From a virus (taxonomy: Duplodnaviria > Heunggongvirae > Uroviricota > Caudoviricetes): 58,581 bases of DNA. The DNA is taken from the IMG/VR virus record IMGVR_UViG_3300033993_002218, positions 64,001 through 122,581 of that record; one strand, given 5' to 3'. The position numbers and the translations under genes are program-made. A model generated the notes under the pieces. The model was not told the DNA's origin. It made no database searches and saw nothing but the letters and a program-made list of their open reading frames with translations. This document shows positions 9,165-58,581 of this stretch, piece by piece (within the stretch, counting starts at the first letter, position 1; each line of letters begins with the position of its first letter).

Positions 9165-9878
9165 TTATTTTAACCATTTGCGAATAGTATTGTCACTAAC
9201 ACCATATTTTTTCCCAACGGCAACATAAGAACTTTCTTGTAACTCTATAAGTAATTGTTCTATCGGTGGTCTTTCAACTCTTCTTTGAGATTTTGAATGA
9301 CATAAAAAGCAAAGACCAGTTTTGGATTTTGTTTTTAACTCAACTTCACAAGAAGAGCAATTATAAACTTTTTTAATTTTTTCTATTTGATTTTTATTTT
9401 TTAATGTTTGTGAATTTTTACTTCTTTTATTTTTACCACGATATGTTGGTGTTTTAGCGTGACAATTTGGGCATAAGATTTTTAAATTTTCTAATATATT
9501 GTTATAATGGTCTCCGTCAATATGATCTAGTTCTAATGGTATTGGTTCACCTAACCACTCACTTAGACCACAACATTCACATTTATATTCCTTTATTCCT
9601 TCACTTATTAATCTTTTTCTCAGTTTATTTGAACTATACCCATAATCTTTAACCAATATCTCATCTAATGGAATAGTGTTAAAGTTATGTGTTTTTCCCT
9701 TTAAATGACCTTGACCAGTAAAGTGGGAAGTATCTATTGCATATAGTTTTTCAAATTTTTTAAATACTCTATAATTGCCTCCTCTTGGGGAGACGCCAAG
9801 TTTAGTAAGTGCCTGAGCAATAGAATAACTTCCTTGAACAGCGTTTTTAAATTCTTCTATTGTATATGAATGTTTCAT
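9165..9878 (-). CDS. Free-standing HNH (homing) endonuclease
   Basis: CECC...ELDHIDGDHYNN..ENLKILCPNCH HNH/Zn motif, a second Cys cluster (CSSC...CFLC) and a C-terminal HTH (VAVGKKYGVSDNTIRKWL). Confidence 0.88.
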   Translation of the reverse strand: MKHSYTIEEFKNAVQGSYSIAQALTKLGVSPRGGNYRVFKKFEKLYAIDTSHFTGQGHLKGKTHNFNTIPLDEILVKDYGYSSNKLRKRLISEGIKEYKCECCGLSEWLGEPIPLELDHIDGDHYNNILENLKILCPNCHAKTPTYRGKNKRSKNSQTLKNKNQIEKIKKVYNCSSCEVELKTKSKTGLCFLCHSKSQRRVERPPIEQLLIELQESSYVAVGKKYGVSDNTIRKWLK

Positions 9879-9900
9879 ACTGATAAACGCATTATATAGT

Positions 9901-9908
9901 TATTTATA
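9901..9908 (-). promoter_or_regulatory. T4-type late promoter TATAAATA for the HNH gene
   Basis: Exact TATAAATA on the minus strand, 22 nt before the ATG, embedded in a hairpin (9882-9918). Confidence 0.75.
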
Positions 9909-9924
9909 TAAGTTTATCGGTTCA

Positions 9925-10196
9925 TACCCGTGAGTGGATTCGAACCACCGCTTGAGAGATTTTCTTACCACTACAACTTTCGTTGCCTTTTCAGTTTGTG
10001 GTCTGGACTATACCTTCACCATACCTTTCGGTTTAGGTGTTCCCCGTCTAGTCTCTACACCTTCATCTTGCGATGCTTGGCTCGGTATTGCCATTTTACA
10101 GGTTTCACCGAATTTGAGGAATTACACTCATAAGGTTTCCCAAATGAGGCTCAATTTTACATAAGTCTCTTGCCTCTTCCGCTGGGCTACACGGGC
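9925..10196 (-). tRNA. trnL(UAA): tRNA-Leu(UAA), intron-containing (exons 10196-10163 and 9963-9925; CCA not encoded)
   Basis: Joined exons give a 73-nt cloverleaf: acceptor GCCCGTG/CACGGGT, anticodon arm AGAGA-CT-TAA-AA-TCTCT, T arm GGTGG-TTCGAAT-CCACT, discriminator A. Confidence 0.92.
9964..10162 (-). ncRNA. Group I self-splicing intron (199 nt, probably IC3) in the tRNA-Leu anticodon
   Basis: Inserted after U34 and ends in G. P1 CUU/GAG; P AAATTCGGTGAAA; Q AATACCGAGC; R GTGTAGAGACTAGA; S AAGGTATAGTCC; P7 GACTA/TAGTC. Same site and motif layout as the cyanobacterial/plastid trnL(UAA) intron. Confidence 0.92.
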
Positions 10197-10208: not shown

Positions 10209-10237
10209 ATTATAACTCAGAAAGTCATAGTGGTCAA
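10209..10237 (-). promoter_or_regulatory. Sigma70-type promoter for tRNA-Leu
   Basis: TTGACC-17 nt-TATAAT, immediately after the 3' end of the CAU tRNA. Confidence 0.7.
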
Positions 10238-10238
10238 G

Positions 10239-10312
10239 TGCAGGTTGTGGGGATCGAACCCACCTTAGCCGAATTATGAGTTCGGTGCTTTCGACCAGAG
10301 AGCTAAACCTGC
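10239..10312 (-). tRNA. tRNA with CAU anticodon (elongator Met or lysidine-modified Ile2)
   Basis: Acceptor GCAGGTT/AACCTGC, anticodon arm CCGAA-CT-CAT-AA-TTCGG, T arm GTGGG-TTCGATC-CCCAC. G1-C72 is paired, so it is not an initiator tRNA. Confidence 0.9.
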
Positions 10313-10341: not shown

Positions 10342-10429
10342 TACCAGCCGAGGGTATCGAACCCTCCCAAAGGCCCTAATCTGGGGCAAATCGCTTATAA
10401 GGCGACTCTGAACACCTGTTCTGACTGGC
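10342..10429 (-). tRNA. Non-canonical tRNA with UAU (Ile) anticodon, long variable arm and minimal D arm
   Basis: Acceptor GCCAGTC/GGCTGGT, anticodon arm GTCGC-CT-TAT-AA-GCGAT, extra arm GCCC-CAGATTA-GGGC, T arm GAGGG-TTCGATA-CCCTC, D arm GAAC-AGGT-GTTC; 88 nt. Confidence 0.75.
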
Positions 10430-10444
10430 GTAAAATCCAGATCA

Positions 10445-10473
10445 ATTATAGAGGATCTGGAACTCTCTGTCAA
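10445..10473 (-). promoter_or_regulatory. Consensus sigma70 promoter for the tRNA cluster
   Basis: TTGACA-17 nt-TATAAT. The -10 sits in the loop of TCCAGATC/GATCTGGA (10436-10461). Confidence 0.8.
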
Positions 10474-10640
10474 CAACCTTCTTCGTGGTCTGTATATATT
10501 CGAACAAGGTCATCATCGGCAGGCATCATCACTGCTGCATTTCCATTTTCACCAACAATTCCGATGTGCTCTCCATTTTCGACTCGTTCGATAAGTTCGT
10601 CAAAGCGTTCTTGAAATTCTTCCACGGTAAAAACTTCCAT
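10470..10640 (-). CDS. Small Phd/YefM-like (antitoxin-fold) protein, 56 aa
   Basis: Manual translation: MEVFTVEEFQERFDELIERVENGEHIGIVGENGNAAVMMPADDDLVRIYTDHEEGC. The N-terminus fits the Phd/YefM pattern (F.ELI.RV..GE.I.I...G..A.M.P). Confidence 0.6.
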   Translation of the reverse strand: MEVFTVEEFQERFDELIERVENGEHIGIVGENGNAAVMMPADDDLVRIYTDHEEGC

Positions 10641-40488: not shown

Positions 40489-40539
40489 GGTGCGTTGCTT
40501 CCCAAATGGTACTTCCGTCGCGTGTGCGATCAACGTACT
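40489..40539 (-). ncRNA. Glutamine riboswitch (glnA RNA motif)
   Basis: CGUUG(P1)-A-UCGC-ACAC-GCGA(P2)-C-GGAAGUA-CCA-UU-UGG(P3)-GAAG-CAACG(P1'): a three-way junction with E-loop matching the glnA motif, upstream of DUF4278. Confidence 0.82.
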
Positions 40540-57169: not shown

Positions 57170-57325
57170 TTATTGGTGCTTTTGTAAATATGCAACCAAA
57201 TCTTTAAGGTAGTCAGATGCCTTATCCCAATCCCCATTAAACCTATCATTAAGTTCTTGATAAATTTTTTCTGCATTTTCAGGTGCTAGATTGGTTGCCT
57301 CAATAAATCCTTCTTTAGTAATCAT
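57170..57325 (-). CDS. Small hypothetical protein, 51 aa
   Basis: Manual translation: MITKEGFIEATNLAPENAEKIYQELNDRFNGDWDKASDYLKDLVAYLQKHQ. Confidence 0.5.
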   Translation of the reverse strand: MITKEGFIEATNLAPENAEKIYQELNDRFNGDWDKASDYLKDLVAYLQKHQ

Positions 57326-57944
57326 AATGTTTTAATGTTTTTTCTGTAAGGTTAATAATTTCTACTATGGGCAATTCTATCACATAACACTCCGTATATC
57401 CACTATCCGTGGTCTCAAAATCAATTTTATAATTTTGATATTTTTGGTGGATGAATTTTTCAAGATGATGGACTTGATAGTGAATTCCTTTCCATATCTT
57501 AATAACACTATGCAATTTATTTTTGGTGTGGTTTGCTAATTTATTGAAACTTCTACCAACCTTATAAACCAATTTACCTTCAAGATAGACAATAACCAAA
57601 TACAAATAATCAGTATCAAAATATCTTTCTTTCCAAGGATTTTGGTAGTTATTTCCTTGTAGTTTTTCGCCATATTTTTTGACTCTTTCATCAGTTTCTT
57701 TGGTTAATCCTTTATTCCAAACTTTTTGACCTGTTTTCTTTCCTTTATTCCAAGGTTCTTTACCAACCTGCCATTCAGAAAAGTTTCTTGTTACACCAAT
57801 TGTTTTAAGATACTTATATACGGAAACTCTTGGTATGTTTAGTTGTCTTCCAATTTCGTGGGAGGATAAACCAGACAAATACATTTGTTTCCAAATCTCC
57901 CTATCCTTATCAGTATATTTTATATTCATTTGTGGTCTGCTCAC
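57315..57944 (-). CDS. Putative free-standing homing endonuclease (HTH + NUMOD-like repeats + GIY-YIG/T5orf172-like domain)
   Basis: HTH GLSSHEIGRQLNIPRVSVYKYL; PWNKGKK and VWNKGLTK repeats; YLYLV...YKVGRS...LEKFIH...GYTECY; GTG start. Confidence 0.65.
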   Translation of the reverse strand: MSRPQMNIKYTDKDREIWKQMYLSGLSSHEIGRQLNIPRVSVYKYLKTIGVTRNFSEWQVGKEPWNKGKKTGQKVWNKGLTKETDERVKKYGEKLQGNNYQNPWKERYFDTDYLYLVIVYLEGKLVYKVGRSFNKLANHTKNKLHSVIKIWKGIHYQVHHLEKFIHQKYQNYKIDFETTDSGYTECYVIELPIVEIINLTEKTLKHYDY

Positions 57945-58012: not shown

Positions 58013-58581
58013 TCAACCGATAGAAGGAGCAGTTAGAGCAACCGAAGTTGTTTCTGCTGCAGCCAAATCTAAAGGAAAATTATGTGCATTTCTCTCGTGC
58101 ATAACTTCCATACCCAACCCAGATTTGTTCAATATGTCCGCCCAAGTAGGAATTACCCGGTTTTGACTATCCAGAATACTCTGATTGAAATTTAGTCCGT
58201 TGAGGTTGAATGCCATAGTGCTTACGCCTAGAGCAGTAAACCAGATGCCCACAACGGGCCAAGCGGCGAGGAAGAAGTGAAGTGAACGAGAATTATTGAA
58301 CGAAGCATATTGGAAAATGAGTCGTCCAAAGTAACCGTGAGCCAATTGTCCAAAAGTTTCCTTAAGGGTTGGACTATATCTTCACCTATTAAAGGTGCTG
58401 GGCGCTCTTGCCTGTTATTAAGGGAACTGTATCCCTCAGGTAGTCTCTGAACCTTTCCTAGATGTATCTAGGACTTGGATGCTGATTGCCATATCCATAA
58501 AGGACTTAGGTTTCCAGCAGTTCACCCAGTTTAACGTGACCCGCTCTGTCAAGCCACGATGTTATAAGTCTCTTCTTCTTG
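58013..58581 (-). CDS. psbA: Photosystem II D1 protein, 3' part, split by an intron (exons >58581-58552 and 58342-58013)
   Basis: [10 protein letters not shown] | [29 protein letters not shown]...[23 protein letters not shown]. The tracked ORF's TTG 'Met' is actually the intron 3' end. Confidence 0.97.
58343..58551 (-). ncRNA. Group I self-splicing intron (209 nt) in psbA between Ala250 and Ala251
   Basis: 5' exon ends in U and the intron ends in G. P1 CGUGGCU/GGUCACG with U-G at the splice site; P10 GAGC/GCUC; P AACTGCTGGAAA; Q AATCAGC; R GTTCAGAGACTA; S AAGATATAGTCC. Removal restores the D1 frame. Confidence 0.95.

Follow-up and report, generated by a model that had tools for sequence, protein, structure and literature searches.

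Phage tRNA genes have stood apart from the known distribution of group I introns: according to a 2014 review, all phage group I introns then known lay in protein-coding genes, despite the many tRNA genes that phages carry (Hausner et al. 2014, PMC3984707). A later survey mapped 5292 tRNA introns in bacterial genomes only and defined, among others, the class Leu.3Ug, in which the intron lies between positions 3 and 4 of the anticodon loop (U34/A35) (Williams 2020). Our own literature search, which covered papers outside subscription, returned no description of group I introns in phage tRNA genes. The closest described system is the trnL(UAA) intron of cyanobacteria and plastids. The 199-nt intron described here, which interrupts a phage tRNA(UAA) gene, shares with it the U34/A35 insertion site (CUU/a...g/AAAA), the U at position -1 in a U.G wobble, the terminal G, the IC3-type core and the lack of an ORF, but it belongs to a separate clade and has another P9 and 3′ end. 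Cyanobacterial trnL introns are 212-312 nt long and end in ...GAAUG or ...GGAUG, whereas the phage introns are about 200 nt long and end in ...GGUAAG; the former reside in a long-arm tRNA-Leu, the present one in a phage genome and in a class I body of 73 nt. Compact IC3 introns in tRNA-Ile(CAU) of Azoarcus, tRNA-Arg(CCU) of Agrobacterium and cyanobacterial tRNA-fMet are similar in size and have a near-identical P7/J6-7 core, the core being also our search pattern, which retrieved the tRNA(CAU), tRNA(CCU) and tRNA(UAA) introns together. These other IC3 introns differ in being inserted after position 33 or 36, in other tRNAs, and they fall elsewhere in our tree. We presume a likeness of our intron to that of Azoarcus.

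The stretch of DNA that we analysed (hereafter the window) is the final 58.6 kb of a 122.6-kb IMG/VR virus record and has a GC content of 34%. It comes from a T4-like freshwater cyanophage that is a relative of Synechococcus phage S-SRM01; the 2018-residue tail-fibre protein of the window is 74% identical to its S-SRM01 counterpart, and lake-water metagenomes contain DNA near-identical to the window. Elsewhere the window carries a glutamine riboswitch aptamer (40489-40537, minus strand; RF01739, 43.1 bits), an element typical of cyanobacteria and their phages. The features of the intron locus, in the direction of transcription, are as follows:

10342-10429, minus strand: tRNA(UAU) with an unusual long variable arm, first gene of the cluster (ARAGORN)
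10238-10312, minus strand: tRNA-Met(CAU), cluster neighbour (ARAGORN; Rfam tRNA, 54.6 bits)
10209-10237, minus strand: putative sigma-70-type promoter, TTGACC, 17 nt, TATAAT, just 5′ of the split tRNA (11 of 12 consensus matches)
10163-10196, minus strand: 5′ exon of tRNA(UAA), positions 1-34, 34 nt, ending ...GACUU at U34 (ARAGORN, introns allowed)
9964-10162, minus strand: group I (IC3-type) intron, 199 nt, no ORF (RF00028, covarying fold, RNA contigs)
10149-10153, minus strand: internal guide sequence UGAGC, P1 partner of the exon/intron sequence ACUUA at 10166-10162 (sequence)
10049-10053, minus strand: 5′ strand GACUA of P7, the guanosine-binding helix, with its partner UAGUC at 10010-10006 (alignment)
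9964, minus strand: terminal (omega) G of the intron (sequence; RNA contigs X15, X16 and X19 end at 9963/9964)
9925-9963, minus strand: 3′ exon of tRNA(UAA), 39 nt, starting AAAAUC (ARAGORN and sequence)
9165-9878, minus strand: free-standing HNH endonuclease gene, 46 nt downstream of the tRNA (PHROG 10822, E 5.5e-58)

Two antisense ORFs (9930-10133 and 9934-10164) were rejected as genes, being mechanical ORFs that overlap the conserved structured RNA. The first tRNA of the cluster, labelled tRNA-Ile(tat) by ARAGORN, has a short D region and falls below the Rfam tRNA threshold, its sole Rfam match being a weak one to tRNA-Sec (31 bits); a homologue is present in S-SRM01 (L001:1960-2049), and ATA makes up 22% of the isoleucine codons of the window. 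A second, near-perfect sigma-70 consensus promoter (12/12) precedes the cluster at 10445-10473 (minus strand), next to an ORF at 10470-10640 (minus strand) for a 56-residue Phd/YefM-like antitoxin (Pfam E 1.9e-6, PHROG 375).

When introns were allowed, ARAGORN reported a tRNA-Leu(taa) with a 199-nt intron after position 34. The 3′ exon supplies A35-A38, the 3′ strand of the anticodon stem, a 5-nt variable loop, the T arm, the acceptor strand and the discriminator A73, and removal of 10162-9964 leaves a 73-nt cloverleaf with the anticodon loop CUUAAAA. At the equivalent locus, S-SRM01 has an uninterrupted 73-nt tRNA(UAA) that reads ...GGACUU|AAAAUCC across the split point of the window, and its gene order (tRNA-UAU, tRNA-Met, tRNA-UAA, small ORF, tail-fibre gene) equals that of the window's cluster. 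The 5′ exon is homologous to L001:2621-2654 of S-SRM01, which also keeps the same promoter block 5′ of its intronless gene, and is 100% identical in the metagenomic relatives L056, L099 and L109. Judged by this comparison, the intron is a discrete insertion into the tRNA gene. The original prediction that a phage tRNA is split at U34^A35 by a compact group I intron was borne out by RF00028, ARAGORN and the intronless orthologue, and its coordinates (9964-10162, 199 nt) proved exact to the base according to ARAGORN, the sequence and the S-SRM01 junction. We also accept its statement that maturation of the tRNA requires removal of the intron, the gene being split between U34 and A35.

A whole-window Rfam scan with default filters and gathering threshold missed the tRNA(UAA) intron. 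A local search, by contrast, matched RF00028 to 9982-10172 (minus strand) with 62.6 bits against a gathering score of 50 (E 1.5e-15), so that the covariance-model check proposed with the prediction came out above the gathering score. We then aligned the intron with 17 phage relatives (18 rows) and drew the structure by hand as P1, P2, P3, P4, P5, P6/6a, P7, P8 and P9/9a/9b, P3 and P7 forming a pseudoknot. Standard pairs occupied 93.5% of the cells of this alignment, compared with 28-41% when the 3′ partners were slid by 1-3 columns. Compensatory changes on both sides were found in 31 of the 58 pairs, and the covariation score was reached by none of 500 shuffles. Helices P3, P4, P6, P7, P9, P9a and P9b were 100% paired and the others 79-99%; the conserved core that had been claimed is thus present, with all helices paired and covarying in the alignment with phage relatives. 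P7 has four invariant pairs and a fifth that covaries, changing from A-U to U-A in 8/18. The minimum free energy fold recovered most helices (z -2.68), and none of 200 shuffles folded as well. The predicted CUU/GAG P1 was found as well, ACUUA (10166-10162) pairing with UGAGC (10153-10149) with the U.G wobble at the splice site; this wobble, between U34 (10163) and the G at 10152, is invariant in 18/18 rows. With the UAA anticodon, the CUU|AAAA split, U at -1 and G at omega, the intron has the features of the tRNA intron class Leu.3Ug.

The tRNA encoded by the split gene has a body of class I, unlike a canonical long-arm tRNA-Leu. We compared it with intron-bearing loci retrieved by an exact 17-base P7 core pattern, with at most 120 loci listed per collection. 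All 66 bacterial tRNA(UAA) introns at U34/A35 among the matches listed lay in class II genes (82-89 nt) and none in a class I gene; the class I body, which the original prediction did not mention, sets this tRNA apart from the canonical class II setting of the cyanobacterial/plastid trnL lineage. Among the 120 loci listed from IMG/VR, 56 were intron-bearing tRNA(UAA) genes, 43 of class II and 13 of class I (73-75 nt). In relatives whose boundaries ARAGORN had misplaced, including 13 that it called 'tRNA-Tyr(ata)' with wrong boundaries and that are truly tRNA(UAA) genes split at the same site, we re-solved the boundaries by rule (U(-1), omega-G and anticodon stem). Intronless class I homologues of 71-73 nt occur in cultured phages of Synechococcus, Prochlorococcus, Pseudomonas, Rhodococcus and Bacillus, where they are annotated as tRNA-Leu by anticodon alone. 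The spliced tRNA has two features of bacterial-type tRNA-Leu, the anticodon UAA and A73, the latter an identity element for LeuRS, and we assume that class I tRNA(UAA) is charged with leucine. TTA is the commonest leucine codon (39%) in the long ORFs of the window, and the phage therefore needs a tRNA that reads UUA.

Introns at this site were also found in cultured and huge phages. The Agrobacterium jumbo phage Atu_ph07 (NC_042013) and the huge phages LR756501 and LR756511 carry phage-borne introns at the same position that are 79-84% identical to ours over most of the intron, but they interrupt class II tRNAs (84-87 nt) and measure 205, 278 and 700 nt, longer than the 199-nt intron in the class I gene of the window. 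The records of these three phages annotate neither the tRNA nor the intron; tRNA-Leu introns are found in the huge phages LR756503 and LR756508 as well as in LR756501 and LR756511. In Atu_ph07 (L246:1083-1444), the class II tRNA-Leu(UAA) has a 278-nt group I intron at U34/A35, and the 'hypothetical protein' gp154 is annotated over the 3′ end. In LR756508 (L248:660-1310), ARAGORN reported within 650 bases split genes for tRNA-Lys(UUU), with a 193-nt intron, and tRNA-Arg(UCU), with a 175-nt intron, with an intact tRNA-Glu between them. A protein-coding case was seen in Pelagibacter phage HTVC120P (L003, about 1464-1654), where a stretch between the capsid CDSs gp29 and gp30 is 75% identical over 120 nt to the window's intron core; a group I intron akin to ours probably splits the capsid gene.

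In a tree of 244 introns from the pattern-limited sample, the window intron fell into a phage-only clade of 22 rows (SH-aLRT 96), all from tRNA(UAA) genes, with class I and class II hosts mixed. Intron and exon identities to the window are decoupled within this clade. Introns and exons are both 100% identical in L056 and L099, where the flanks are about 75-78% identical; in L109 the intron is 94% and the exons 100% identical, in L084 the intron is 97% and the exons 77% identical, and in the class II members the introns are still 89-94% identical while the exons are down to 54-59%. The only exon context common to the clade is GACUU|AAAAUC. Near-identical introns in divergent tRNA bodies are a signature of recent lateral movement between tRNA genes, and these comparisons indicate that the intron is a member of a phage-borne lineage that moves laterally between phage tRNA(UAA) genes. 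We therefore favour, with fair confidence, the reading that the intron is an active, ORF-less IC3-type ribozyme of a laterally mobile phage lineage, residing in a class I tRNA(UAA) and not recently copied from a host.

The original prediction had instead taken the intron to be a copy, carried by the phage, of the ancient trnL(UAA) intron of cyanobacteria and plastids; on this view it would have been acquired from a cyanobacterial host with, or into, a tRNA-Leu gene. The shared insertion site, IC3-type core and logic of P1 speak for such a capture, and the pattern-limited tree unites the cyanobacterial and window clades in a 65-row group together with other phage introns (SH-aLRT 92). We enlarged the cyanobacterial sample by an Rfam search of 151 evenly drawn genomes, of which 40, mostly larger ones, matched, and added 22 trnL introns; most of the small genomes among the 151 had no group I match, which weighs against a host source. 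In the enlarged tree, 29 cyanobacterial trnL rows (22 from this unbiased search) are separated from the window by a branch with 100/100 support and a length of 0.75. On the window's side of this split are phage and other bacterial tRNA introns, among which the backbone is poorly supported. The cyanobacterial side also holds an unclassified bacterial row (L174) and, via a branch 4.48 long that is probably a misplacement, rows from tRNA-Asn(GUU). The latter come from cyanobacterial genes (L263, L269, L272, L274 and L275) with a 302-nt group I intron after position 35, inside the anticodon, which differs strongly from those of trnL (branch length 4.5). When the window clade and the cyanobacterial clade were forced into an exclusive sister grouping, the tree was not rejected (p-AU 0.71). 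The free 'careful' tree search was suboptimal, the constrained trees scoring higher, and our conclusions are therefore confined to the 100/100 split and the clade of near-identical phage introns.

The phylogeny that the original prediction had proposed as a check thus gave a divided answer: the relatives are indeed tRNA introns, but the intron does not group with those of cyanobacterial trnL, and an exclusive sister relation to them is compatible with the data. Identities of only 47-66% to the cyanobacterial introns, compared with 89-100% to the phage copies, together with the differing 3′ ends and lengths, also argue against a captured copy, as do the class I body, seen in 0/66 of the listed bacterial intron-bearing tRNA(UAA) genes, and the wide spread of intronless class I homologues in cultured phages. 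Lying outside that clade, the intron appears from its sequence to be no recent copy of a cyanobacterial host-type trnL intron; an old common origin with these introns is possible, and host capture as such we regard as improbable.

Evidence on the activity of the intron came from environmental RNA. Six lake or freshwater metatranscriptome runs contain about one sixth of the words sampled from 1 kb of sequence surrounding the locus, and we examined assembled contigs from four lake runs, one per study. Four contigs matched the intron, all with 100% identity, over 9964-10118, 9963-10140, 9984-10134 and 9963-10162; three of them terminate at the predicted 3′ boundary and one begins at the predicted first intron base. 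This is good evidence that the intron is precisely excised in nature, and, as L056 and L099 have identical introns, the excised RNA may derive from a close relative. None of the contigs of the four runs lay on the tRNA exons or the HNH gene, an absence that is no proof of silence, and a separate contig (10471-10600) covered the neighbouring small antitoxin ORF. One intron contig, X19, is 229 nt long and runs from 10162 down to 9964 and then over 10161-10133; its length equals 199 + 30, where 30 is k-1 if 31-letter words were used in the assembly. Because 9963 and 10162 are both A on the RNA strand, X19 reads as the terminal G joined to the first intron base, with the junction ...GGUAAG joined to AUGUAAAA..., and it suggests that the whole intron had closed into a circle.

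Group I introns have been documented to form full-length circles as an alternative product, without exon ligation (PMC6274462). Since this pathway leaves the exons unjoined, the RNA contigs prove excision, not productive splicing; the predicted ligated junction is GAGACUU-AAAAUCUCU, and a 73-nt mature tRNA cannot appear among contigs, so that ligated exons are invisible to these data. One might therefore suppose that the intron mostly circularises and is chiefly a selfish or regulatory RNA that limits the output of tRNA(UAA) and is not phenotypically neutral. It is true that the sole complete RNA form recovered is the full-length circle, and a role for circles in intron mobility has been proposed (PMC6274462). 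Circles are stable, however, and may be over-represented relative to the rate at which they form; mature tRNAs escape this type of assembly, and many phages that need tRNA(UAA) for their codon usage have kept the intron. We accordingly consider it rather unlikely that limiting the tRNA is its main role. Least credible of all, and in our judgement very nearly dismissed, is that the intron is a decaying inactive remnant in a tRNA pseudogene, for which one could cite an Rfam score moderately above threshold and the failure of the default scan, but against which stand the intact, covarying core helices, the 100% conservation of intron and exons in independent contigs with flanks only about 75-78% identical, the RNA contigs ending at both predicted boundaries with one precise circle, and the use of TTA as the phage's main leucine codon.

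Returning to the reading of a mobile phage lineage, the HNH endonuclease gene next to the tRNA offers a candidate agent of movement. With a short leader, the gene forms a clean 749-bp insertion (9172-9920), the flanks of which abut in L056, L099, L109 and S-SRM01. Three states of the locus were thus observed: neither element (S-SRM01), the intron only (L056, L099 and L109), and the intron with the HNH gene (the window and L084). In more than 20 loci, a homologue of the HNH protein is encoded no more than a few hundred bases from a tRNA-Leu intron, and one is found inside the 700-nt tRNA-Leu intron of LR756511. The HNH protein gp048 of S-SRM01 gave no match to that of the window at E 1e-5. The link to the endonuclease is circumstantial because close relatives retain the intron without the HNH gene; the arrangement of these loci fits HNH-assisted homing of the tRNA(UAA) intron. 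A T4-type late-promoter-like sequence, TATAAATA, lies between the end of the tRNA and the start codon of the HNH gene.

The arrangement recalls the collaborative homing of the psbA intron and F-CphI in S-PM2, where an ORF-less intron in a T4-like cyanophage is likewise accompanied by a free-standing endonuclease gene adjoining the split gene. It differs in that the interrupted gene encodes a tRNA, the endonuclease is an HNH protein from a different family, and close relatives keep the intron without it. The window has a psbA group I intron of its own at its contig end (58350-58576, minus strand; RF00028, 88.5 bits); the frame downstream of it (58013-58381, minus strand) encodes the C-terminal part of the photosystem II D1 protein (Pfam Photo_RC), and the upstream exon lies beyond the end of the contig. 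Directly 3′ of psbA is an ORF for 209 residues (57315-57944, minus strand) with a weak helix-turn-helix match (GcrA, E 0.004), a position that recalls that of F-CphI in S-PM2.

Based on these observations, we propose the following course of events. The precursor would probably be made from the consensus sigma-70 promoter just upstream. In it, the intron, whose fold and boundaries are set out above, would adopt helices P1 to P9, the last exon bases pairing with the internal guide UGAGC. By analogy with the family, free guanosine would attack at the U.G wobble, just 3′ of U34; the last intron base, G at 9964, would dock in P7, and the exons would be joined into the 73-nt tRNA with the loop CUUAAAA. 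The spliced tRNA would read UUA, the phage's commonest leucine codon. The excised intron persists in nature, and at least part of it apparently closes into the full-length circle. The lineage itself moves between phage tRNA(UAA) genes, needing little beyond the GACUU|AAAAUC context of the anticodon loop, probably with the aid of homing endonucleases of the HNH kind, one of which is encoded by the insertion immediately 3′ of the tRNA here.

Phage tRNA genes split by group I introns are common in sequence data, as the 56 cases among the 120 listed IMG/VR loci, Atu_ph07 and the huge phages attest, and the setting found here, a phage tRNA with a class I body, is undescribed in the literature that we searched. 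Along with its many relatives, the locus is a counter-example to the picture given in the 2014 review, and a clean one, with its intronless orthologue, its covarying fold and the evidence of excision in environmental RNA. Because standard annotation misses such genes, as in Atu_ph07 and the huge phages, current phage tRNA repertoires and the codon-usage analyses built on them are incomplete. The 199-nt ribozyme with its natural full-length circle also offers research on ribozymes or circular RNA a compact object of study. A phage-borne intron lineage that passes from one tRNA gene to another evidently shares the classical trnL insertion site. This bears, with no direct host link shown, on the scatter of tRNA-Leu introns across bacteria and on the debate over vertical versus lateral inheritance. 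We tentatively suggest, as a speculation that may well fail, that phages keep their own actively mobile pool of trnL-site introns, hopping between unrelated tRNA(UAA) genes of either class by means of HNH endonucleases, be these free-standing or encoded in the intron, and perhaps of full-length RNA circles, and that they act as vectors of the sporadic tRNA-Leu introns acquired laterally in various bacterial phyla. If this is true, part of the story of the 'ancient, vertically inherited' trnL intron would be recast.
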